A stretch of 64,000 bases of DNA from Vicinamibacterales bacterium (GCA_035633215.1 DASQFI010000045.1:76316-140315); one strand, 5' to 3'; shown: positions 4,391-64,000, counted from the first letter of the stretch. Translations and numbers: made by a program. Notes: a model not told the origin generated them from the letters alone.

Positions 4391-4842
4391 CACAGCGGGC
4401 CAGACGATCGCCGCGCCGGAACGCCGCAAGGCGCGAAGGCGGGGAGGAAAGTCCGAACTCCGCAGGGCAGTGCGCCGGGTAACACCCGGTCGGGGCAACC
4501 CGAAGGACAGTGGCACAGAAAACATACCGCTCACCGTAGCCCGAAGCCCGCAAGGGCGGAGGGCGAAGGTGAGTAAGGGTGAAAAGGTGCGGTAAGAGCG
4601 CACCGCATCTGTCGTGAGGCAGATGGCACGCAAAACCCCGCACGGAGCAAGGCCAAATAGGGAGGCGCCCCGCGCCGGCGTGCAAACGCTGCGCGCGACG
4701 GGAAAGCGGATGGTCCCGTCCGAAGCCTCCGGGTAGGCTGCTCGAGCCCGTCAGCAATGCCGGGCCTAGAGGAATGATCGTTACGCCGGCTCGGCCGCAA
4801 GGTCGCGACGGCGGACAGAATTCGGCTTACGGCCTCGCTGTG
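4391..4842 (+). ncRNA. rnpB: RNase P RNA, bacterial type A
   Basis: Universal motifs GGAGGAAAGTCCG (from ~4443), GGTAAGAGCGCACC (~4590) and ACAGAAttCGGCTTA near the 3' end. P1 pairing between cacagcgggcc (4391-4401) and ggcctcgctgtg (4831-4842). Confidence 0.93.
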
Positions 4843-4857
4843 GCGGAACCTCTTTTA

Positions 4858-5009: not shown

Positions 5010-6269
5010 ATGCGGAGCAGACTTGTTCAGGCCGGTGTGATCGCGACTGTCGCCGCGGTCGGCGCCGCCATGCTCGTTGCGCAACAGCAGCAGCAGGGCG
5101 GACAGACCACAGGCGGCCAGCAGCAGACCGGCGGCCGCGGCGGTCGAGGCGGCGGCACGCAGGTCCAGCCCGGCCAGGAATGTCCGCCGGGCATGACGAT
5201 GGTACGGCCGGGGAATTGCCAGGCGCCGCAGTTTCCGCCGCCGAGCATCGTCGACTATCGCCCGCGCAACACGCTGGTGACCGCCGCGCACCCGACGCCG
5301 AAAGCCAAGTTTCCCGCCATCGACTACCACGGCCACGCGGGCGGCCGACTCAACACGCCCGAAGGCCTGAACGGGCTCATGGCGGCGCTCGACCAGCTGA
5401 ATGTGAAGCTCTTCGTGGCGGCCGATGGCATCTCCGGCGCCAATCTCGACCGCGTGATGAAGACGCTCGCTGCGTCGCCGCACAAGGACCGTGTCCGGCC
5501 GATGACGACGATCAACTTCAGCAACGTCGGACCGGGGTGGGCCGAGAAGGCCATCGCGCAACTCGAAGCGGACGTCAAAGCCGGCGCGGTCGGCGTGGGC
5601 GAGATCAGCAAGGGTTTCGGTCTGCGCACGCGCAAGCCGGACGGCTCGCTGCTCAAGATCGACGATCCCGAGCTCGATCCCGTGTGGGAGGCGTGCGCCC
5701 GGCTGAACATCCCGGTGTTCATTCACACCGCCGAGCCCCAGGAATTCTTCGAGCCAATCGATTTCAAGAACGAGCGCTGGCTCGAGCTGGCGCTGTTCAG
5801 CGACCGGCGCTATCCGCCCGATCAGTTTCCGCGCTTCGAAGAGCTGATGGCGCAGCGCGATCGGATGTTCAAGAAGCACCCGAAGACCCGGTTCGTCGCG
5901 GCGCACTTCGGCTGGCACGCCAACGACCTGGGGCGGCTCGGGAAGATGCTCGACGCGATGCCCAACGTCTACACCGAAATGGGCGCCGTGCTCTACGACA
6001 TCGGCCGCCAGCCGCGCGGCGCGCACGATTTTCTGGTCAAGTATCAAGACCGCGTGCTGTTCGGCAAGGACGCGTTCGAGCCGAGTGAGTACCCCACGTA
6101 CTGGCGCGTCCTCGAGACGAGGGACGAGTACTTCGACTACTACCGCGACTACCACGCCTTCTGGAAAATGTACGGCGTCGATCTCCCCGACGTCGTCTTG
6201 AAAAAGATCTACTACCAGAACGCGCTGCGGATCACGCCCGGCCTGCCGCAGACCGGCTGGCCGCGCTAG
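5010..6269 (+). CDS. Secreted amidohydrolase-family (TIM-barrel metal hydrolase) protein with Gln/Gly-rich linker
   Basis: Signal-like N-terminus. Low-complexity QQQQQGGQTTGGQQQTGGRGGRGGG. AIDYHGHAGG metal-binding start and HTAEP/AAHFGW motifs typical of amidohydrolase_2. Confidence 0.8.
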   Translation: MRSRLVQAGVIATVAAVGAAMLVAQQQQQGGQTTGGQQQTGGRGGRGGGTQVQPGQECPPGMTMVRPGNCQAPQFPPPSIVDYRPRNTLVTAAHPTPKAKFPAIDYHGHAGGRLNTPEGLNGLMAALDQLNVKLFVAADGISGANLDRVMKTLAASPHKDRVRPMTTINFSNVGPGWAEKAIAQLEADVKAGAVGVGEISKGFGLRTRKPDGSLLKIDDPELDPVWEACARLNIPVFIHTAEPQEFFEPIDFKNERWLELALFSDRRYPPDQFPRFEELMAQRDRMFKKHPKTRFVAAHFGWHANDLGRLGKMLDAMPNVYTEMGAVLYDIGRQPRGAHDFLVKYQDRVLFGKDAFEPSEYPTYWRVLETRDEYFDYYRDYHAFWKMYGVDLPDVVLKKIYYQNALRITPGLPQTGWPR

Positions 6270-6368
6270 AGCCGTTCTCACTTCCCGTAGAGAGCAAAAC
6301 CGACATGGGTCGCGAGACTTTCGGTCGAATCTACCAACTGGCTCGCTACAGGAGAGTGAGAACGGCTC
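6269..6368. repeat. MITE-like 100-nt palindromic element, copy 1 of 4
   Basis: Terminal inverted repeats GAGCCGTTCTCACTTCC / GGAGAGTGAGAACGGCTC, flanked by TA (6267-6268, part of the TAG stop of the upstream gene) and TA (6369-6370). Homologous along its length to 24783-24882 and 29428-29526. Confidence 0.75.
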
Positions 6369-6397
6369 TAATGGCCGGGACCTGTCCACGCCACTAG

Positions 6398-7351
6398 ATG
6401 CCGACGTATCTCGTCACCGGCGGCGCCGGGTTCATCGGATCGCACCTCGTCGCGGAGCTCTTGCGCCGCGGCCAGTCGGTGCGGATTGCCGACAACTTCT
6501 CGACCGGTCTCCGTGTGAACCTGCCCGCGGGCTCGGCCGTCGATCTGGTCGAAGGGGACCTGGCCGACGCGGACGTCGCCCGCCGGGCCGTCGACGGCTG
6601 CACCTACGTCATTCATCAGGCGGCGATCCCCTCCGTGCCGCGCTCCGTGAAAGATCCTGTCGGCTCCAATCGCGCGAACGTCGACGCCACGGTGCAGGTG
6701 CTCGCGGCCGCGCGTGAGGCCGGCGCCAAACGCCTCGTCTTTGCGGGCTCATCGTCGGTGTACGGCAACGCCGCGGTGCTGCCAAAACGCGAAGACATGC
6801 GTCCCGCGCCGCTCTCGCCCTACGCGCTCCAGAAGCTCGTCGCCGAGCAGTATTGCCAGATGTTCACGAAGCTCTACGGCTTCGAGACGGTGACGACGCG
6901 GTATTTCAATGTGTTCGGGCCGCGCCAGCAGCCCGGATCGCCGTACTCGGGCGTCATTTCGCTTTTCATCGAGGCGCTTTCGGAAGGGAAGGCGCCCACC
7001 ATCCACGGCGACGGCAAACAGACCCGCGACTTCACGTACGTCTCAGACGTCGTGGACGGGGTCCTGCGGGCCTGTGAAGCGCCCACTGCGGCTGGGGAAG
7101 TGATCAACGTCGCCGGCGGTGGACGCATCTCGCTCCTCGAAGTGCTGCGCACGCTCCAGACCATCCTTCGCAAGCAGGTCGACGCGACGTTTGGTCCACC
7201 GCGCGAAGGGGACGTGCGCGACTCACAGGCCGACATCCACAAGGCGCGGCAGATGCTCGGCTACGAGCCGCGCACGCCGCTCGAGGACGGGCTGCGGCGT
7301 ACGGTGGAGTGGTACCTGTCGACTGCAGCGCCCACACGGGCCGGTTCGTAG
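6398..7351 (+). CDS. NAD-dependent nucleotide-sugar epimerase/dehydratase (extended SDR)
   Basis: Rossmann motif VTGGAGFIGSH, catalytic YxxxK (SPYALQKLV), length 317 aa. Confidence 0.9.
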   Translation: MPTYLVTGGAGFIGSHLVAELLRRGQSVRIADNFSTGLRVNLPAGSAVDLVEGDLADADVARRAVDGCTYVIHQAAIPSVPRSVKDPVGSNRANVDATVQVLAAAREAGAKRLVFAGSSSVYGNAAVLPKREDMRPAPLSPYALQKLVAEQYCQMFTKLYGFETVTTRYFNVFGPRQQPGSPYSGVISLFIEALSEGKAPTIHGDGKQTRDFTYVSDVVDGVLRACEAPTAAGEVINVAGGGRISLLEVLRTLQTILRKQVDATFGPPREGDVRDSQADIHKARQMLGYEPRTPLEDGLRRTVEWYLSTAAPTRAGS

Positions 7352-9201: not shown

Positions 9202-9881
9202 CGCTCCGGCGGCGCCACGGAACGCCACTTGACTTGACGTGGTATTCGGCGGCTCTTCAGGAGCGTCGGCGCAGCCGACCACGTCGAGTCAAGTGGGTTC
9301 CGGGATCAAAAAGCGAAGGTTATTCGCTGGTCGAACTCCTGCTTGTGCTGGTCGCGGCGACGACCTTCGTGTCAGTCGCGCTGCCGCTGACGAAGACCAG
9401 CACCGACGCAGGCCGGGCACGACACGCCGGCAGCTTCGTCGCCGCGCGGTTCCGGCTGGCGCGGCAGCAGGCGGTGGCACGGACGGCAACGGTCGGGTTG
9501 GTGTTCGACCTGGTGAACGGCCGATGGCAGGTGCGGGTTTGCGCGGACGGAAACGCGAACGGCTTGCGGCGCGCGGAGATCGCGGCCGGCGTGGATCGAT
9601 GCTTCGAAGGCCCGCACGATCTGGAATCGCTGTTCCCAGGTATCCGTGTCGCGGTGGACAACACGCTCCGAGGCCCAGGCGGCGAACCTCCGTCACCGGA
9701 TCCCGTGCGATTCGGCGCCTCAAACATCGCCAGCTTCTCCGCGTCTGGAAGTTGCACTGCCGGGTCGCTGTTCCTCAGATCTTCGCAGAACTTGCAGTAC
9801 GCCGTGAGAATCGCGGGGGTGACCGGGCGGACCCGGATCCTCAGATACAACTCGGCGACCGGAACCTGGGACGAGATATAG
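9198..9881 (+). CDS. GspH/FimT-family minor (pseudo)pilin with prepilin-type N-terminus
   Basis: Prepilin motif G|YSLVELLLVLV. GspH-like body. C-terminal GRTR (GRxR). ATG 9198 overlaps the comEA stop (ATGA). Alternative TTG start at 9234. The track ORF 8877..9881 upstream of 9198 is out-of-frame read-through of comEA. Confidence 0.75.
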   Translation: MTLRRRHGTPLDLTWYSAALQERRRSRPRRVKWVPGSKSEGYSLVELLLVLVAATTFVSVALPLTKTSTDAGRARHAGSFVAARFRLARQQAVARTATVGLVFDLVNGRWQVRVCADGNANGLRRAEIAAGVDRCFEGPHDLESLFPGIRVAVDNTLRGPGGEPPSPDPVRFGASNIASFSASGSCTAGSLFLRSSQNLQYAVRIAGVTGRTRILRYNSATGTWDEI

Positions 9882-21587: not shown

Positions 21588-21610
21588 GGCAACCTCTAAT
21601 ATCCCGGAAA

Positions 21611-21681
21611 GCACTTGACGTGACGTGGTCGGCTGCGCCGGAGCTCCTGAAAAGCCGCGGATACCACGTCACGTCACGTGC
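21611..21681. promoter_or_regulatory. 19-bp inverted repeat rich in ACGT/CACGTG between secA stop and guaB start
   Basis: gcacttgacgtgacgtggt (21611-21629) pairs with accacgtcacgtcacgtgc (21663-21681), 18/19 complementary, 33-nt spacer. Confidence 0.5.
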
Positions 21682-21688
21682 TTTCCTT

Positions 21689-24637
<2,949 letters not shown>

Positions 24638-24782
24638 GCGGGCGGCCAGCGACGCGTGTGCCCGACGCGGAGGGCGAAGCGAACCCCTACAGTCGGCTCA
24701 ACAGCGCCGTGGGTAATCCAGCGATTGTATCAAAGACCTCGGGTTTGGTTTTTTCCGTCTTGGCTCGAAAAACGAAACCCGA

Positions 24783-24888: not shown

Positions 24889-25803
24889 TTATGGTCTGGC
24901 GAGTAGCCGAAGCGGGTTGATCGGCTGGCCGTTCAGGAGGATTTCGTAGTGCAGGTGTGTGTTCGTCGCGCGGCCGGTGGAGCCGACGAAACCGACGACA
25001 TCACCGCGCTTGACCGTCTGTCCGGACCGGACCGCGAAGCGCGACAGGTGTCCGAACCGCGTGGCGATCCCGAAGCCGTGGCTGATCAAGACGGCATTGC
25101 CGTAGTTGCCGGCGTAGTCGGCCGACTCGATCTTGCCGTCGGCGGTGGCTTTCACGGGCGTGCCGTGGTCGGTCGAGATGTCGAGCCCGGAATGGAAATC
25201 CGGACGGCCGGTGAACGGATCCGGCCGCATGCCGAAGCCCGACGTGAGCCAGCGCGGAATCAGCGGCCAGATCGACGGCGTCGCGCGCGCGAGCGCCTGC
25301 TGGCCTTCGATCTTCGTCCTGACGGTCGCGAGGCGATCCTCGAGGACGCCGAGCAAATCGCTCAGGATGCCGAACGTGCTCTCGGGTGATCCGTTGACGG
25401 CGCGCGCGAGCGTAGGATCGACGCGCGTGGCGCCGCCGCCCATCGCCCGGCCGCGCAGCAGCTGCGGCAGCTTGTCGAGGGCGGCCTTGGTCGTCGGGTC
25501 GAGCTGCGATTGCTCGCTGAGCTGTGTGAGGACGGTCTGGAGCGACGCGACCTGGCCGGTCAGCTCGCCCGTGGCTTCACGGTAGCTCTCGTTTTCGAGG
25601 CGGAGGATTTCGTTGGTGAGACGCAGTCCGGCAAGCTCGGCCTCGCCGGCGGTCTTGGCGCCGAGCCCAAGGAGCAGGGGCGTCGTGATGAGGCCCACGG
25701 CCGAAATCAGGGCCAGCACGCCGACCCGGCGGCTGATGGAAAACCGCCGTACGGCCCCTGTCTTTCGGTTCGCGATCAGGATCGAATAGCGTGTCGAGCG
25801 CAT
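24889..25803 (-). CDS. M23-family (LytM-type) metallopeptidase with N-terminal TM and coiled coil
   Basis: HSGLDIS...; HLHYEILLNGQPINP. Coiled-coil segment ELAGLRLTNEILRLENESYREATGEL. Confidence 0.9.
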   Translation of the reverse strand: MRSTRYSILIANRKTGAVRRFSISRRVGVLALISAVGLITTPLLLGLGAKTAGEAELAGLRLTNEILRLENESYREATGELTGQVASLQTVLTQLSEQSQLDPTTKAALDKLPQLLRGRAMGGGATRVDPTLARAVNGSPESTFGILSDLLGVLEDRLATVRTKIEGQQALARATPSIWPLIPRWLTSGFGMRPDPFTGRPDFHSGLDISTDHGTPVKATADGKIESADYAGNYGNAVLISHGFGIATRFGHLSRFAVRSGQTVKRGDVVGFVGSTGRATNTHLHYEILLNGQPINPLRLLARP

Positions 25804-25900: not shown

Positions 25901-26008
25901 TGAACTTCGAACTTAGAACTTCAAACTTCGAACTTACAGCTTTCGGACTCCAGCCAAAACACAGGGATTCTGCGTTTCGAAGTTCCAAGTTCGACGTTCT
26001 CAGTTCAG
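25901..26008. repeat. Opposed arrays of heptamer repeats (NGAACTT x5 ... AAGTTCN x4)
   Basis: tgaactt cgaactt agaactt caaactt cgaactt (25901-25935), then ~30 nt spacer, then agttcca agttcga cgttctc agttcag (25981-26008). Together they form an imperfect long palindrome upstream of the M23 peptidase gene. Confidence 0.7.
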
Positions 26009-29427: not shown

Positions 29428-29526
29428 GAGCCGTTCTCACTTCCATGCAGTGCTAAACCGCTCGAATCGCGGACAGATGGGCCGAATTCTGCCCGGCGGG
29501 CCGCTACAGGAAAGTGAGAACGGCTC
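29428..29526. repeat. MITE-like 99-nt palindromic element, copy 3 of 4
   Basis: GAGCCGTTCTCACTTCC ... GGAAAGTGAGAACGGCTC. The last base overlaps the TAG stop (29526-29528, minus strand) of the aldehyde dehydrogenase gene. Flanks GA/TA. Confidence 0.75.
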
Positions 29527-31247
29527 TAGGCGTGGGGCCACGCCGCGCTCACGAATACCCGATGCGGCTGTGCGAGATCGCGCGCCGATGGAGTGACAAT
29601 CGTGCGCTCCCCGATCACAATCTTGCGCCCGAGCTTGATCGCCTGCTTCACGTCTTCTTCGCACACGAATTCGACGGCCCCGGCCGCATCCGGGTTGGCG
29701 GCCGGCGCCGGTGGCGACGCGCCGCCACCCAGGAGCGCGTCGACCTGCCGTCGCATCGCGGGCGCATCGATCCCGGCCGATGCGGGCGCCGCCGCAATTT
29801 TGGGCAACCAGCTGTCGTCTGCAGTCGCGCGCTTCGGAGGCGCGACCGGCTGACCGTCAACGCGCACCACGGCGGGACGTACCTCGTACGCGAGTCGCTT
29901 GATGTTCAAAAGATGCCGCGGCGAGATGTTGTCCGACGTGATGTTGCCGCCGAACCCGCCGCACCCCAGCGTCATCGCGGGATCGAGTCCCGTCGTGAGT
30001 CCGATCGCTCCGTGCGTCGTGGGTGTGTTGACGACGATGCGGTACGCGGGTTTCTTCAAGCCGAACTCGAGAATCACGTCCTCGTTCCGCGAGTGGATGG
30101 ACATCGTGTGGCCCATCCCGCCGTACCGCAGGATCTGTTTGCAGCGCTCGCAGCCTTCGCGCCAGTCAGCGACGACGTAGTACGAGAGGACCGGGCAGAG
30201 CTTCTCGATCGACAGCGGGAACTCGCGTCCGACACCCTTCAATTCGGCGATCAGCGCGCGCGTCTTGGGCGGAATGCTGAATCCCGCCTGTTGGGCGAGG
30301 AAGGAGGCCGGCTTGCCCACGAGCTTCGGATTCGGAAGACGCTGCGGAGAGACAAGCACAGCCGCGAGCTTGTCGGCTTCTGCCGGCGACATGAAATACG
30401 CGCCCTGGCTCGTAAACTGCCGCTTCACTTCGTCGGCGACAGCGGCATCGACCACGACGGAGTTCGGCGACGAGCAGAGCACGCCGTTGTCGAAGCACTT
30501 GCCGACGAGGATGTCGCTCGCGGCCTTGGCCAGGTCCGCGGACTTCTCGATGTAGCACGGCGCGTTGCCGGGCCCGACGCCGTACGCCGGCTTGCCGGCG
30601 CTGTAGGCGGCGCGCACGAGTCCCATCCCGCCCGTCGCCAGAATCACGGCGACGTCCCGGTGCTTCATCAGCTCCTGCGTGCCTTCGATCGTCACCGTCT
30701 GCATCCAGTTGACGGCCCCCGCGGGCGCGCCGGCGCTCGCGGCCGCTTCGGCCATGACCTCGGCGACGCGGGTGATGCACCGCGCGGCGGACGGATGCGG
30801 GCTGATGACGATCGGGCAACGCGCTTTGAGCGAGATCAGAATCTTGTAGATCGCCGTGGACGTCGGATTGGTCGAGGGAACGATCGCGGCCACGACGCCG
30901 AACGGCTCCGCGATCTCGACGAGTTTGCGCGCCTCGTCGCGGGCAACGACACCCACGGTCTTCATCGGGCGGATGAATCGATACACCTGCTCGGAGGAGA
31001 AAAGGTTCTTCTCGATCTTGTCAGCGACGACGCCGTAGGTCGTCTCCTCGACGGCCAGCCGTGCGAACTCTTCGGCGCGCGAAGTCGCGGCCGCGGCGGC
31101 CGCATCGATGATCTTGTCGATCTGGGCCTGGCTGAACTCGGCGAGAACCGGCGCGGCCTGCTTGGCGCGCTGCGCCAGGCGTCGAGCTTCCTGGATTGAA
31201 GTGAGATCGCGGTCGGTCGGAGCGGCGGTTGTTGCGGTCGCAGCCAT
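29526..31247 (-). CDS. CoA-acylating aldehyde dehydrogenase (EutE/PduP/SucD-like) with ~117-aa C-terminal extension
   Basis: Catalytic context KCFDNGVLCSSPNS (Cys258). Core ends near residue 456. Extension is Pro/Ala-rich linkers plus two ordered-looking segments. 13 nt downstream of a BMC-H gene. Confidence 0.9.
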   Translation of the reverse strand: MAATATTAAPTDRDLTSIQEARRLAQRAKQAAPVLAEFSQAQIDKIIDAAAAAATSRAEEFARLAVEETTYGVVADKIEKNLFSSEQVYRFIRPMKTVGVVARDEARKLVEIAEPFGVVAAIVPSTNPTSTAIYKILISLKARCPIVISPHPSAARCITRVAEVMAEAAASAGAPAGAVNWMQTVTIEGTQELMKHRDVAVILATGGMGLVRAAYSAGKPAYGVGPGNAPCYIEKSADLAKAASDILVGKCFDNGVLCSSPNSVVVDAAVADEVKRQFTSQGAYFMSPAEADKLAAVLVSPQRLPNPKLVGKPASFLAQQAGFSIPPKTRALIAELKGVGREFPLSIEKLCPVLSYYVVADWREGCERCKQILRYGGMGHTMSIHSRNEDVILEFGLKKPAYRIVVNTPTTHGAIGLTTGLDPAMTLGCGGFGGNITSDNISPRHLLNIKRLAYEVRPAVVRVDGQPVAPPKRATADDSWLPKIAAAPASAGIDAPAMRRQVDALLGGGASPPAPAANPDAAGAVEFVCEEDVKQAIKLGRKIVIGERTIVTPSARDLAQPHRVFVSAAWPHA

Positions 31248-42341: not shown

Positions 42342-43157
42342 GTGTCGATCATGACGAGTGCGCGCCACGACATCGCGGCTTCGAGCGGGCTCCGGCGGCG
42401 CGACGACGGGTACATCCTGGTCGTCCTGCTGATCGGGATGGCCGTGGCGGCGATCTGGATGAGCGCCGCGCTGCCTGCATGGCGCCAGCAATCGATGCGC
42501 GAGAAAGAGCTCGACCTGATCTTCCGCGGCGAGCAATACGCGCGCGCCATCGCGCTCTACCAGATCAAGAACAACTCGTATCCACTCGACATCGACGTCC
42601 TCATCTCACAGCGTTACCTGCGCAAGAAGTGGAAGGACCCGGTAACCGGAGAGGACTTTCAACCGGTCGGCATTACCACGCCGGGCACGGGCACGACGCC
42701 GGGCCGATCGGGGACGACGCCGGGGACCACGCCTGCGAGAGGCGTCACGCCCGGGATGCCCGCGCGCGGCGCCACACCGCAACAAACGGCCACGCCAGGC
42801 CGCTCACCTCAAGGACTCTCGTTCGGCAACCAGCCGCTCGTCGGCGGCATCACGGGCGTGCGCAGCCTGAGCCAGGCGACGTCGATCCGCGTGTACAACG
42901 GCCAGCAGCAGCACAATCTCTGGCAGTTCGACGCGGCGATGCTGATGGCGCGCATGGGACGCAATCAGGCGCCGCCCGGCGGCGGGCCGGCACGTGGACG
43001 AGGCGACGGCCGCGCCGGTCCTGGAGTGCGGCAAGGCGTACCGGGGGGAGTGCCGGGCGGAGTGCCGGGCCGCGGTGTTGGTCCTGGCGGTCGTGGTGGC
43101 ATGCCGCCGCCTCCACCTCCGCCCGGCGGACCGGGACGCGGAGCCGGAAGTGAATGA
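42342..43157 (+). CDS. Divergent pseudopilin-like protein with Gly/Pro/Thr-rich low-complexity tail
   Basis: G|YILVVLLIGMAV hydrophobic N-terminus without Glu at +5. REKELDLIFRGEQYARAIALYQ resembles T2SS minor pseudopilins. C-terminal half is TPG and GGVPG repeats and a PPPPPPP run. Confidence 0.5.
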   Translation: MSIMTSARHDIAASSGLRRRDDGYILVVLLIGMAVAAIWMSAALPAWRQQSMREKELDLIFRGEQYARAIALYQIKNNSYPLDIDVLISQRYLRKKWKDPVTGEDFQPVGITTPGTGTTPGRSGTTPGTTPARGVTPGMPARGATPQQTATPGRSPQGLSFGNQPLVGGITGVRSLSQATSIRVYNGQQQHNLWQFDAAMLMARMGRNQAPPGGGPARGRGDGRAGPGVRQGVPGGVPGGVPGRGVGPGGRGGMPPPPPPPGGPGRGAGSE

Positions 43158-43279
43158 AGGCAGTGAAGGGGTGAAGAACATGAAGGAAAGCGCTGGTCTT
43201 TGATATCGCTGCTGCGGTCAGGATCGATTTCAAAGACGAGTGCTTGTCTTCATGTTCTTCACCCCTTCACTGCCTTCAT
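43154..43279. repeat. 32-bp perfect inverted repeat (62-nt spacer) between convergent genes
   Basis: atgaaggcagtgaaggggtgaagaacatgaag (43154-43185) pairs with cttcatgttcttcaccccttcactgccttcat (43248-43279). The arms overlap both stop codons. A related half-copy lies at 16945-16979. Confidence 0.85.
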
Positions 43280-45373: not shown

Positions 45374-46134
45374 TGCCGCGCGTCGTCATCCTTGAAACCG
45401 AGCGTGACGCATCAGCGGCGGTCGCGTCGTTTCTCGCAAGAAGCCTCGACGCGACGCCCGATCTCGTGCTCGCGCTTCCGGCCGGCCGGACCCCGATACA
45501 GTTGTACGACGCGCTGGTGGCGTGCCATCGCTCGGGGGCCGCGGATTTCAGCCGCGCCACGACCTTTGGCCTCGACGAGTTCGCCGGATTGCGACCCTCC
45601 GATCCGCGGAGCTTCCACGCGTTCCATCGCCGGCATCTGCTCGATCGCGTCAACGTCGAAGCCGTCCGCATTCACACCCTGAACGGCGCCGCGTCGAACT
45701 GGAGAAGGGAAGCGGCGGTCTACGAACGGCAGATCTCCGACGCGGGCGGCCTCGACTTCGCGATCGTCGGCATCGGCCGCAACGGCCACGTGGGATTCAA
45801 CGAGCCGGCAGGTCGCCTGCCCGCGCGCACGCATCGCGTCCGGTTGCGTCCCGAAACGCGACGCGCCAACGCGGAGGCCTTCGGCGGGCGCTGGCGCGAC
45901 GTGCCGACACATGCGTTGTCGATGGGCATGGGCACGATCCTCAACGCGCGCGGCGTGATTCTGGTCGCGTTCGGGCGCCGGAAGAGAGCGATCGTGCGTC
46001 GCGCGCTGAGCGGTCCCGTGACGACGCGAGTGCCGGCCTCACTCCTGCAACTGCATCCGAATGGCCTGGTGGTGTTGGATCGTGCGGCATGGGGACGGGA
46101 GTCGATTGTGGAAAACTCCCGGGACGCTACCTAG
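45373..46134 (+). CDS. nagB: Glucosamine-6-phosphate deaminase family protein
   Basis: LALPAGRTPIQLY, FGLDEF, IVGIGRNGHVGFNEP. TGATG overlap with the kinase stop. Confidence 0.85.
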   Translation: MPRVVILETERDASAAVASFLARSLDATPDLVLALPAGRTPIQLYDALVACHRSGAADFSRATTFGLDEFAGLRPSDPRSFHAFHRRHLLDRVNVEAVRIHTLNGAASNWRREAAVYERQISDAGGLDFAIVGIGRNGHVGFNEPAGRLPARTHRVRLRPETRRANAEAFGGRWRDVPTHALSMGMGTILNARGVILVAFGRRKRAIVRRALSGPVTTRVPASLLQLHPNGLVVLDRAAWGRESIVENSRDAT

Positions 46135-46186
46135 CGAGTTTCACTGGCGATGTCCCTGGAGTTTTCCACAATCGACTCCCGTCCCC

Positions 46187-47128
46187 TTATGTCTTAAGCA
46201 GTTTCTTGAGGCGCGGTTCGAGATCCTCGCCGATGGCTTCGCGCACCGAATCGTGCGATTTGCGCAGCCGCCGGAGCGCCTGCGAGTACGAAACGTCGGC
46301 ATTTTTCATGACGATTGCCGCCTTGACGTTCCACTTCGCGACGCGCAGCAGCTCGCCGGCGTCTTCGGCATCGGTGCCCGTGACCATCATCACGATGCGG
46401 CGTGCGCGGTCCTTGAGCTTCTCCGACCCGATCTGCACGTCCACCATCAAGTTGCCGTACGTCTTGCCGACGCGCACCATCGCGATTGTCGTCAGCATGT
46501 TGAGGACCATCTTGGTGGCCGTGCCGGCCTTGAGGCGGGTGGATCCGGCGACGACCTCGGGCCCGACCGCGGGCGCGATGATCAGGTCGACGTAGTTCTG
46601 GAGCTCGGTGCCCGGCCAGCACGTGACGAAGATGATGCGCGCGGCCTTCTTGCGCGCGCCGGTGAGCGCGCCGCGGACGAACTGCGTGATGCCGCTGGCC
46701 GAGACGCCGATGACGACGTCGCGCTTGGAGACGCGGAGGCGCGCGATGCTGCGCGCGCCTTCCTCGAAGTTGTCCTCGACCCCTTCGCGGGCGCGGAACA
46801 CGGCCTCCTGGCCGCCCGCCATGATCGCCTGCACGAGTTTGGGAGTGGTGCCGAACGTCGGCGGCATTTCGGCCGCTTCGACCACGCCGAGCCGGCCGCT
46901 GGTGCCGGCGCCGACGAGGAACAGCCGGCCGCCTTTCTTCAGCGCGCTGGCGATGATCTCGACGCCGTGCGCGATCCGCTCGCGCTCTTTCTGCACCGCC
47001 GCGACGACGCGGCGATCTTCGGTGCTGATGAGATCGATGATCTCGAGCACCGGCATCCGGTCGATCGCCAGTGTGGCGGGATTGATCGCTTCAGTGGGCA
47101 GGTCTTGCCACTTCGAGTGATACGGCAT
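46187..47128 (-). CDS. murQ: N-acetylmuramic acid 6-phosphate etherase
   Basis: SIS domain RLFLVGAGTSGRLG, TRLKAGTATKMVLNM. ATG 47128 (MPYHSKWQDLPTE...) lies within the longer track ORF. Confidence 0.9.
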   Translation of the reverse strand: MPYHSKWQDLPTEAINPATLAIDRMPVLEIIDLISTEDRRVVAAVQKERERIAHGVEIIASALKKGGRLFLVGAGTSGRLGVVEAAEMPPTFGTTPKLVQAIMAGGQEAVFRAREGVEDNFEEGARSIARLRVSKRDVVIGVSASGITQFVRGALTGARKKAARIIFVTCWPGTELQNYVDLIIAPAVGPEVVAGSTRLKAGTATKMVLNMLTTIAMVRVGKTYGNLMVDVQIGSEKLKDRARRIVMMVTGTDAEDAGELLRVAKWNVKAAIVMKNADVSYSQALRRLRKSHDSVREAIGEDLEPRLKKLLKT

Positions 47129-47259
47129 GGCGCATGCGGCCGCACGCGCGAAGCGTGAAAGACGACCGCGATGACCGAACGGCTCTAGCGTACTATAGCT
47201 CCAGCTCCGTCGCGAACGTCGACGCGCGAGGGGTGACCAGCCCCGGAGTATCCACCGGC

Positions 47260-48150
47260 ATGTCCGCGCCCACGCCTGAGAGCTACCTGCGCCACCTCGA
47301 AGTCGAGCGGCGCATGGCGCCGAACACACTCGACGCCTATCGCCGCGATCTCGCGCGGCTGTCGGAATTCGCCGCCGCGCAGCGACAGCCGTTGACGCAC
47401 TTGACGCGTCGCGATCTCGAGGCCTTCGTGCGCGAGCTGATGTCGTCCGGCTTGTCGGCCGCATCGACCGCGCGTCTCGTCGCGTCCACGCGCGGGTTCT
47501 TCCGCTTTCTGCGGCTCATCGGCGCGGTGGCCGCCAATCCCGCCGAGGACCTGCAAGCGCCGCGCGCGTTCGCCGCGTTGCCGCGGTTCCTGTCGCTCGA
47601 GGACGTGGACGCGCTGCTGGCGGCGCCCGACACGTCGACGCCGCGCGGGCTGCGCGATCGCACGCTGATTGAGGTGCTGTACGCCACCGGCCTCCGCGTC
47701 TCCGAGCTCGTCGGCCTGCGCGTGACCGACGTGCGCGTTGACGAGGGCTACGTGCAGTGTCTCGGCAAGGGGCGGAAGCAACGCATCGTCCCGATCGGCG
47801 ACACCGCGGCCGACTGGGTCCGGAGGTACGTCGCCGAAGGACGGCCGGTCCTGACGAACCAGCGGCAGACGCCGTGGCTGTTCGTGAACGCGCGCGGCGG
47901 CGCCCGCCTCTCGCGCAGCGGGTTTTGGAAACTGTTGAAGACGTACGGCGGCGAGGCCGGGCTGCGCGCGCATCTGAGTCCGCACGTGCTGCGTCACTCA
48001 TTCGCAACACATCTCCTCGAGCGCGGCGCGGATCTCCGCGCGATCCAGGCGATGCTCGGACATGCAGACCTGTCGACGACGCAGATCTATACGCACGTGC
48101 TCGAGGCCCGGCTGCGGCAGGTCTACGACCAGTTCCATCCGCGGCATTAG
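47260..48150 (+). CDS. Tyrosine site-specific recombinase, XerC/XerD family
   Basis: N-terminal SAM-like domain. Catalytic R..HxxR..Y: LYATGLRVSELVGL, HVLRHSFATHLL, LGHADLSTTQIYTHV. Confidence 0.9.
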   Translation: MSAPTPESYLRHLEVERRMAPNTLDAYRRDLARLSEFAAAQRQPLTHLTRRDLEAFVRELMSSGLSAASTARLVASTRGFFRFLRLIGAVAANPAEDLQAPRAFAALPRFLSLEDVDALLAAPDTSTPRGLRDRTLIEVLYATGLRVSELVGLRVTDVRVDEGYVQCLGKGRKQRIVPIGDTAADWVRRYVAEGRPVLTNQRQTPWLFVNARGGARLSRSGFWKLLKTYGGEAGLRAHLSPHVLRHSFATHLLERGADLRAIQAMLGHADLSTTQIYTHVLEARLRQVYDQFHPRH

Positions 48151-59556: not shown

Positions 59557-60315
59557 TTGCGCGCGCTCGGAACGCTGGTCCTGGCGATCCAGGATCAGGG
59601 CATAGCCGCAGGCTCAGCGGAAGCGGCCTCACGCCGGACTGACATCGTCTCCCTGATTCTCAGCGCCGACCCGGTCGTCAAGGCCGTGCTCGCCACGCTG
59701 GTGCTCTTCTCCGTCGTCTCCTGGGGGATCATTCTCTACAAGCAGCGTCAGCTGCGTCGCGCGTCGAAGCAGACGGCGACGTTCCTCGACGTGTTTCGCA
59801 AGAGCAGCCGATTCTCCGAAGTGCAGTCGGTGTGCGCAAGCCTGCCGTCGAGTCCGCTCGTCGGACTGTTTCAGTCCGGCTACGCGGAGCTCAACGCTCA
59901 GCTGCGTTCGGCGGCCGACAAGCCGGGGACGCCGGCGCCACGTCCAACCCTCAGGAGTCTGGAGGCCGTGGACCGCGCCCTGCTGAGAGCGTCGACGACC
60001 GAGGTGGCCAAGCTGGAGCACCGCGTGCCGTTTCTCGCGACGACGGCATCGATCACGCCGTACATCGGCCTGTTCGGCACGGTGTGGGGGATCATGTCGT
60101 CCTTCCAGGAGATTGCCGACAAGGGCTCGACGAGTCTTGGCGTCGTCGCGCCGGGTATCGCCGAGGCGCTGGTCGCCACGGCCGCCGGGTTGTTCGCGGC
60201 GATCCCGGCCGTGTACTTCTACAACGATCTGACGAGCCACGTGAAAGCGTTCTCGAACGAGATGGAGGACTTCTCGATGGAGTTCCTCACGATCGCGGAA
60301 CGGAACTTTACTTAG
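59557..60315 (+). CDS. tolQ: TolQ (MotA/TolQ/ExbB proton-channel family)
   Basis: TTG start 5 nt after GGAGG. Three TMs. PYIGLFGTVWGIM and GIAEALVATAAGL motifs. Heads a tol-pal cluster. Confidence 0.88.
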   Translation: MRALGTLVLAIQDQGIAAGSAEAASRRTDIVSLILSADPVVKAVLATLVLFSVVSWGIILYKQRQLRRASKQTATFLDVFRKSSRFSEVQSVCASLPSSPLVGLFQSGYAELNAQLRSAADKPGTPAPRPTLRSLEAVDRALLRASTTEVAKLEHRVPFLATTASITPYIGLFGTVWGIMSSFQEIADKGSTSLGVVAPGIAEALVATAAGLFAAIPAVYFYNDLTSHVKAFSNEMEDFSMEFLTIAERNFT

Positions 60316-60416
60316 TGCCGTTCCAACTTAATGCACCGATGAACGCGCTCCCTCACTCCAGCCACCCGGGCCACCTCGAGAGCGTTGCCTCTTGGCGGCG
60401 CAAGTTGGAACGGCAC
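60315..60416. repeat. MITE-like 102-nt palindromic element, divergent copy 4 of 4, between tolQ and tolR
   Basis: GTGCCGTTCCAACTT ... AAGTTGGAACGGCAC, flanked by TA (within the tolQ TAG stop) and TA. The TIR is related to GAGCCGTTCTCACTT of copies 1-3; the interior is unrelated. Confidence 0.65.
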
Positions 60417-63711: not shown

Positions 63712-63744
63712 GGAGCTCGGGCCGCCCAGGCTCGACGGAAACCG

Positions 63745-64000
63745 ATGAGGCTCACTCGATCGTTGCTCATGCTTCTGCTGCTCGCCGGCGCCGCGGTGCC
63801 GGCGCGAGCGCAGAACCGTCAGGACCTGCAGATGCTCGCCGACATGCGGCTCCTGCAGGAAAACGTGGCGAAGCTGCAGCTCACCGTGAACATCCTGCTC
63901 GAACAGCTGAAGGCCACCAACGCGCAGGTGGACGCGAACAAGAATCTGGGCCAGAAGCTCCACGCCGAGCAGATGGTGCAGATCAAGGACATCGCGCAGA
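63745..64000 (+). CDS. CpoB/YbgF-like Tol-Pal-associated protein, 3'-truncated by window edge
   Basis: ATG 63745. Signal peptide LLMLLLLAGAAVPARA, then a coiled coil (DLQMLADMRLLQENVAKLQLTVNILLEQL). Position after pal. Frame open to the window end. Confidence 0.6.
   Translation, partial: MRLTRSLLMLLLLAGAAVPARAQNRQDLQMLADMRLLQENVAKLQLTVNILLEQLKATNAQVDANKNLGQKLHAEQMVQIKDIAQ

Follow-up and report, generated by a model that had tools for sequence, protein, structure and literature searches.

Palindromic 100-nt elements of Vicinamibacterales, very probably MITEs, with a C-NN-G target and a frequent position at stop codons

Bacterial MITEs (miniature inverted-repeat transposable elements), such as the Correia elements of Neisseria, are non-coding sequences of about 100-150 bp bounded by terminal inverted repeats and by short, TA-centred target duplications. 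Correia-type MITEs occur in many intergenic copies beside genes, are transcribed as hairpins together with their neighbours, and their sites vary between filled and empty among strains. Among insertion sequences (ISs), the IS630/Tc1-mariner elements duplicate TA, IS630 itself preferring CTAG, and members of the IS5 group duplicate 4 bp, CTAG or CTAA, at the target YTAR. Here we describe a family of palindromic elements of about 100 nt present in a 64-kb stretch of DNA (the window; 66.5% G+C), the closest protein relatives of which are labelled Vicinamibacterales or Acidobacteriota metagenome-assembled genomes (MAGs). They are very probably MITEs, i.e. non-autonomous DNA transposons, of Vicinamibacterales (Acidobacteriota), because target duplications flank 67 of 78 copies, identical copies lie at different loci of one genome and all four sites occupied in the window are found empty in relatives. 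An earlier note on the window had already proposed a MITE-like mobile family, and the further copies and the filled and empty sites that it asked to be sought beyond the window have been found.

The elements resemble the Correia-type MITEs in their small non-coding size, inverted repeats, TA-centred duplications, gene-adjacent copies, transcribed hairpins and filled/empty variation. They differ in the Vicinamibacterales host, in an unrelated repeat sequence and in a target that is relaxed to C-NN-G, and no evidence of element-borne promoters or processing sites has been seen here. The terminal repeat string appeared in the literature searched only in chicken PCR primers; neither the family itself nor any publication on MITEs of Acidobacteria was found there.

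An exact-match search of the window revealed six occurrences of the 13-mer GAGCCGTTCTCAC, arranged as three inverted pairs (6269/6356, 24783/24870 and 29428/29514) with the members 73-74 nt apart; the end pair of the family is written as GAGCCGTTCTCAC...GTGAGAACGGCTC. The window contains no match with one or two mismatches, and the 28 matches with three mismatches, against 33 expected, correspond to the chance level. The three pairs bound the copies of the main family, and a fourth element carries a different repeat. All four were recovered at the positions reported previously, with the same lengths and flanks:

6269..6368, plus strand: copy 1, main family, 100 nt (nhmmer E 1e-20), terminal repeats 6269-6281/6356-6368, flanks TA (6267-6268) and TA (6369-6370), as 4-mers left CTAG and right CTAA
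24783..24882, plus strand: copy 2, main family, 100 nt, terminal repeats 24783-24795/24870-24882, flanks GA/GA, as 4-mers CGAG/CGAG
29428..29526, plus strand: copy 3, main family, 99 nt, terminal repeats 29428-29440/29514-29526, left flank GA, right flank TA
60315..60416, strand unassigned: copy 4, sister family, 102 nt, repeat GTGCCGTTCCAACTT, flanks TA/TA, as 4-mers TTAG/CTAG

The three main-family copies are 75-78% identical overall and 66-70% identical in the interior, with all 26 repeat positions perfect; a constraint thus acts on the ends that does not act on the interior, and perfect repeats beside diverged interiors would fit selection for recognition by a transposase. Copy 4 had been regarded as a divergent member of the same family. 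Its arms (17 nt, 100% complementary) have a sequence, GTGCCGTTCCAACTT, that is different from but related to the main-family repeat; since the nhmmer profile of the main family does not detect this copy and only the repeat core G.GCCGTTC..AC.TT is in common, we assign it to a sister family instead.

Outside the window, two repeats spaced 60-90 nt apart were found at 27 loci in about nine Vicinamibacterales or Acidobacteriota MAGs (one genome per species scanned), and a scan of metagenomes for the single repeat gave at least 120 matches. Long-read MAGs with copies include CAVRWQ MFD06229.bin.2.89 and CAWAEG MFD00962.bin.1.162. With an nhmmer profile built from oriented copies, 78 distinct full-length copies with usable flanks were obtained from the window, MAGs and metagenomes among the matches listed. 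Their length is narrowly distributed (98-100 nt in 73 of 78, full range 95-109 nt), which is too short to encode a transposase, and the median pairwise identity across the family is 73%.

Recent movement is shown by a single MAG in which three 99-nt copies, 100% identical to one another, lie on three contigs in unrelated flanks (L007, L017 and L027). Judged from these sequences, the family is active or recently active in Vicinamibacterales. The complementary evidence was obtained by walking from homologues of the proteins flanking each window copy to the contigs of these homologues, the flanking genes being identified by Pfam. All four sites proved to be empty in close relatives, whose flanking proteins are 89-95% identical. 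The site of copy 1 is empty in L161 (epimerase 95% identical), in L151 and L152 (91%) and in L157 (89%), the last of which reads CGCGCTAGATGG, i.e. an intact CTAG at the stop codon. Three relatives with SecA 89-92% identical (L148, L149 and L150) preserve the gene order aldehyde dehydrogenase - SLT/LysM - comM-like - M23 peptidase - secA and carry no copy anywhere in this syntenic block. The copy 2 site is thus empty in all three; L149 has GACCTCGAGTTTCG where the window has GACCTC, the element and TCGGGTTTCG. At the exact position of the copy 3 stop codon, which in the window is composed of TA and the G of the element, the same loci carry TGA, TAA and TGA, respectively, without the 101 nt. 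The copy 4 site is filled in L159 (ExbB 95% identical, element 84% identical, flanks CTAA/CTAA), which makes two lineages that have retained the element between exbB and exbD. No element is present at this site in L160 or in two P0244 contigs (92% identical), in which the exbB-exbD gap is 3-4 nt; L160 reads CACCTAATCGCATG at the junction.

In L157 (ERZ25039555 contig_19426, 1.3 Mb) the gene calls near the epimerase gene are broken into many short open reading frames (ORFs), which suggests frameshift errors of the assembly. Directly beside copy 2, upstream of secA, there is a hairpin with an A/T-rich stem at 24737-24781 (TCGGGTTTGGTTTTT...AAAAACGAAACCCGA); it predates the insertion of copy 2, since an equivalent inverted repeat is present in L149.

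The empty sites also bear on the possibility that the elements are integron attC-like or other site-specific recombination sites which mark the 3′ ends of gene cassettes, as might be thought of imperfect palindromes of about 100 nt starting at or near the stop codon of an upstream gene. Cassettes would be gained and lost with their genes, but what the relatives lack is the element alone, not the element with a gene, and the neighbours of the copies (secA, exbBD, the epimerase gene, glycine-cleavage neighbours) are housekeeping genes in syntenic order. The core sites of integron attC are RYYYAAC/GTTRRRY, and the ends of the elements are unlike them; nor was an integrase found among the 59 window ORF translations scanned. 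The probability of such an origin is next to nil.

The duplications define the target. The two nucleotides that flank the element are identical on both sides as TA in 42 copies, TC in six, GA in six, CA in five, AT in three, GT in three, and TT and TG in one each, so that 25 of the 78 copies have perfect duplications other than TA. As direct rather than inverted repeats, the pairs GA/GA, TC/TC, CA/CA and GT/GT are not extensions of the palindrome. In 74 of 78 copies a C precedes the duplicated pair and in 70 a G follows it, with less marked preferences for G at -4 and for C at +4. These regularities define the target as the palindrome C-NN-G, preferably (G)CTAG(C). The 2-bp duplication by a TA-targeting transposase envisaged in the earlier note stands as regards the duplications and the preference for TA, and does not as regards the strict TA rule; the duplicated segment may, moreover, be longer than 2 bp.

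The same duplications tell against a different origin, namely that the elements are palindromes of the repetitive extragenic palindromic (REP) type or their hairpin-forming doublets (REPINs), mobilised by an HUH tyrosine transposase (RAYT). The resemblance lies in the overall form, a long hairpin of about 100 nt, in the abundance of extragenic palindromes at gene ends and in the motif GTAG at positions 20-23, which most copies mirror as CTAC at the other end. Single-strand HUH transposition is not known to make such target duplications, though, and here variable flanking nucleotides are duplicated (GA/GA, TC/TC, CA/CA, AT/AT, GT/GT). GTAG-tagged REPs are a described class (PMC3733652). The present elements consist of long terminal repeats around an asymmetric interior, and their conserved 13-nt terminal repeat is not itself a REP-like palindrome. 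With no Y1 transposase domain found among the 59 window ORF translations scanned, and no RAYT found, we consider an origin from REPINs very unlikely indeed.

Because the first base of the element is G and its last base C, two descriptions of the junctions fit: a 2-bp duplication with the ends GAGCC...GGCTC, or a 4-bp duplication (CNNG) with the ends AGCC...GGCT. Read as 4-mers, 61 of the 78 flank pairs are perfect repeats, 34 of them CTAG pairs, and the mismatches are spread at similar rates over the four positions (4, 8, 7 and 7 of 78). In three copies the first base of the element is A instead of G, and two of these have the flanks CTAA/CTAA (Fisher p = 0.01); the sister-family copy in L159 adds one more CTAA/CTAA case. 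The perfect 4-mers, the even mismatch rates and the co-variation with CTAA/CTAA make 4 bp the more likely length, which is suggestive rather than decisive, as the outer C and G of the 4-mers could equally be the ends of the element itself.

In relation to the known IS groups, the elements share with IS630/Tc1-mariner a preferred CTAG target centred on TA and, if the junctions are read in one of the two ways, the 2-bp duplication. The differences are that TA/TA is found in only 42 of 78 copies, that three CTAA/CTAA cases favour 4 bp and that no IS630-type transposase has been linked to the family; a strict IS630-type TA rule is contradicted, since 25 copies have perfect non-TA duplications. With the IS5 group they share the palindromic target and, when the duplication is read as 4 bp, CTAG (34 perfect pairs), CTAA and the related CNNG. 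Unlike in that group, the inner two positions vary more than YTAR allows (CTCG, CGAG, CCAG, CATG, CGTG), the family repeat does not resemble the IS5 repeat and no transposase has been found. Of the two candidate transposase families, IS5-like and IS630-like, the IS5-type rule of a 4-bp CTAG/CTAA duplication appears to fit better than the strict IS630 one.

The position at stop codons that had been pointed out for the window copies holds. Copies 1, 3 and 4 share a base with the TAG stop of the upstream gene, which is composed of the flanking TA and the outermost base of the element. The first base of copy 1, a G, completes the TAG of an amidohydrolase gene (5010-6269, plus strand), and a gene for an NAD-dependent epimerase (plus strand) begins at 6398, 29 nt downstream of the copy. 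The last base of copy 3, a C, completes on the minus strand the TAG of an aldehyde dehydrogenase gene (29526-31247), the downstream neighbour being an SLT/LysM lytic transglycosylase gene on the minus strand. Copy 4 separates exbB from exbD: its first G is shared with the exbB stop (TAG, 60313-60315), and it ends 8 nt before the exbD ATG (60424). Copy 2 is located between the genes of an M23 peptidase (24889-25803, minus strand) and of SecA (21689-24637, minus strand), 6 nt from the TAA stop of the former.

Across the 78 copies, the stop codon of a long ORF with high G+C at third codon positions (GC3) is built from the duplication and the element end in at least 25, and a further 22 lie at most 60 nt after a stop. 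The stop is at the left end of the profile model in 12 cases and at the right end in 16, with the stops of convergent genes at both ends in three copies (L091, L127 and L140). Where the duplication is AT or GT, the insertion falls on an ATGA or GTGA stop-start overlap and neither codon is lost (L016, L023 and L026): the TGA persists as T plus the GA of the element, and the ATG or GTG is retained as well. The gene downstream of the insertion in L026, whose product begins MTLCLITDRR, is presumably thiE, as read from the N-terminus only.

The scarcity of CTAG bears on this association. In the window CTAG occurs at 19 sites, against 198 expected from base composition (about ten-fold under-representation) and 40 by a Markov estimate; TAG is used as 17 of the 45 stop codons called there. 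The MITE-bearing loci (n=73, 408 kb) contain 104 unoccupied CTAG sites, of which 24 (23%) serve as the stop codon of a long high-GC3 ORF and 20 fall within ORFs. By the choice of target alone, the element is thus brought to stop codons. When copies with TA on at least one side are compared with these free sites, 23 of 49 copies overlap a stop against 24 of 104 free CTAG (odds ratio 2.9, p = 0.005), and the remaining two-fold enrichment is plausibly due to the elimination of insertions harmful to genes or promoters. Since the duplication restores the 4-mer on either side, the upstream TAG persists. The link with stop codons is thus real, and it is explained by target choice and selection rather than by a function of the element.

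Each window copy folds into one long hairpin, as had been predicted, with energies of -45 to -58 kcal/mol (z -3.4 to -7.8), and across 75 copies the median is -48 kcal/mol. This stability, together with the tight length of 98-100 nt and the many copies that directly follow a stop codon, is what one would expect of a structured non-coding RNA (ncRNA) or 3′-UTR (untranslated region) element, a terminator or an mRNA stabiliser, that has spread by duplication or recombination and not by transposition. The pattern of conservation points elsewhere. In 75 distinct sequences taken in ungapped register, positions 1-15 are paired in 67-100% and positions 17-18 and 20-23 (GTAG/CTAC) in 60-81%; the imperfect complementarity, including the GTAG/CTAC motif, runs to about position 27, and past about position 28 pairing comes close to the 36% expected by chance. 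Almost all paired columns have a single dominant pair type, and in the RNAalifold consensus nothing but the repeat stem is left (covariation term -0.35 kcal/mol), so the check for compensatory changes that was meant to reveal an ncRNA family lent it no support.

The terminator role suggested earlier fares no better. Stops abut 12 left and 16 right ends and there is therefore no strand preference, i.e. the orientation relative to the upstream gene is random. A scan of 6100-6500 showed no U-tract or terminator-like site, and the sequences that follow copies 1-4 are TAATGG, GAGGTC, TAGGCG and TAGATC. Copies are found inside operons, between exbB and exbD and at the stop/start overlap upstream of the putative thiE, where a strong terminator would be harmful. 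At the Rfam gathering thresholds no element was matched, the only match in the window being an RNase P RNA elsewhere, and a permissive Rfam scan of copy 1 gave one chance-level microRNA match (E 0.32). Fold, covariation, orientation, U-tract and Rfam tests have thus revealed no evidence for a terminator or ncRNA role, and target duplications with clean empty sites are not expected of an RNA gene. We therefore hold an RNA element to be very unlikely, and a stabilising or modulating effect of the MITE hairpin on the mRNA to be possible. The RNase P RNA is of bacterial class A and lies at 4392-4845 (253 bits); the amidohydrolase gene before copy 1 follows shortly downstream.

The partner of the MITE was sought in several ways. 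A Pfam scan covered 59 ORF translations of the window, namely the called genes and the longest ORFs of most larger intergenic gaps; the comM-like and tolB-like genes, which were assigned by synteny, and a partial ORF at 63712-63999 were left out. In agreement with what had been noted before, none of the 59 has a transposase domain, a Y1 transposase domain or an integrase. About 20 have no match, and all those with a match are housekeeping genes, including ligA, metK, lptFG, parAB, recN, tonB, and those for sigma-54 activators, the glycine cleavage system, IMPDH, and pilus and secretion functions. Solo or distant repeat pairs across all loci, inverted repeats of at least 13 nt spaced 0.5-3.5 kb apart in 900 kb, and the ORFs adjoining solo repeats in L036 and L039 yielded no partner element, and neither did 63 solo repeat matches from metagenomes, which are mostly chance 17-mers in unrelated DNA or degenerate copies. 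Two scans of viral contigs gave no matches, and blastn of copy 1 against plasmids gave one chance match only.

One locus stands apart: in L060, positions 1-104, the first 28 nt match the family, after which the sequence is unrelated and contains three CCGTTCAC repeats and an open frame that starts with ATG and is cut off by the contig start. It is the sole candidate for a longer, possibly autonomous relative; tblastn of its 26-aa open frame against plasmids found no partner.

Several points weigh against the interpretation of the family as MITEs, or limit it. The search proposed earlier for an IS with the same terminal repeats covered the window, about 900 kb of related loci, viral contigs and plasmids and yielded no autonomous element bounded by them, and for this reason mobilisation in trans is what we infer. 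The non-TA duplications misfit a classical transposase of the IS630 type, and the choice between 2 bp and 4 bp depends on three co-varying cases. The copies outside the window come from other MAGs and metagenomes, not from the window's own genome, and as perfect repeats served as the bait for loci, degenerate copies are under-sampled and the sample does not give copy numbers per genome.

We propose the following mechanism for these MITEs. A transposase, probably of the DDE type and acting in trans, would be encoded elsewhere on an IS with the same ends and would bind the terminal inverted repeats of about 13-27 bp. It would make a staggered cut at a palindromic C-NN-G, with CTAG preferred, into which the 100-bp element would be inserted, and repair of the cut would leave a duplication of 2 bp (NN) or, more likely, of 4 bp (CNNG). 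In this GC-rich genome CTAG is very rare, many of its occurrences being a C followed by a TAG stop codon. With the 4-mer restored at each junction by the duplication, an insertion in TAG, TGA or an ATGA/GTGA overlap leaves both frames intact and so survives selection.

Other repeats are present in the window. A second small palindromic family has copies at 21606-21686 (81 nt) and 9225-9296 (72 nt), with arms like GCACTTGACGTGACGTGGT; they are 88% identical over 66 nt, the first of them ends 2 nt from the secA stop, and the family was not found in the other collected loci. At 46091-46186 there is a 96-nt hairpin with 35-nt arms (97% complementary) that abuts the TAA stop of a gene for a SIS-domain protein (46187-47515, minus strand). 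Only one copy occurs among the sequences collected, and the hairpin may be either a further MITE-like element or a true 3′ structure. A 126-nt near-perfect palindrome at 43154-43279 (61-nt arms, 89% complementary) has a visibly higher A+T content than the DNA around it and separates a small ORF without a Pfam match from a gene of the beta-lactamase fold. Inverted arrays of 7-nt units (GAACTTC, GAACTTA, AAACTTC etc.) occupy 25901-26007 between the M23 peptidase and comM-like genes, and similar heptamer arrays occur in the intergenic DNA of relatives (L004 1339-1365 and 3691-3731, L151 2569-2602, L153 167-200, L071 and L097).

It is conceivable, though unlikely, that the element is more than a passive passenger and that its hairpin preserves or tunes translational coupling in operons; equally unlikely, and as a separate matter, its transposase might belong to an undescribed group with a relaxed C-NN-G target. 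Where the paired ends coincide with a stop or a stop-start overlap, the upstream stop and the downstream start may be brought next to each other at the base of the hairpin in the mRNA. If coupling were preserved in this way, a ribosome that terminates there would open the 5′ arm and thereby release the 3′ arm beside the start codon, and a transposon would have a route to inhabit operons, as between exbB and exbD and upstream of thiE, without polarity.

As a MITE, the element is of an ordinary, well-known kind, and the explanation of its position is neat but unsurprising. Its interest lies in the host, as Vicinamibacterales are an abundant, poorly studied soil lineage for which our literature search found no published description of a mobile element, and in the simple mechanistic reason for the position at stop codons: a rare palindromic target, CTAG, that coincides with stops and is rebuilt by the duplication. 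In practical terms, the copies give rise to long ORFs and hairpins at gene ends that mislead annotation, and they break metagenome assemblies; they also serve as presence/absence markers at the level of strains.

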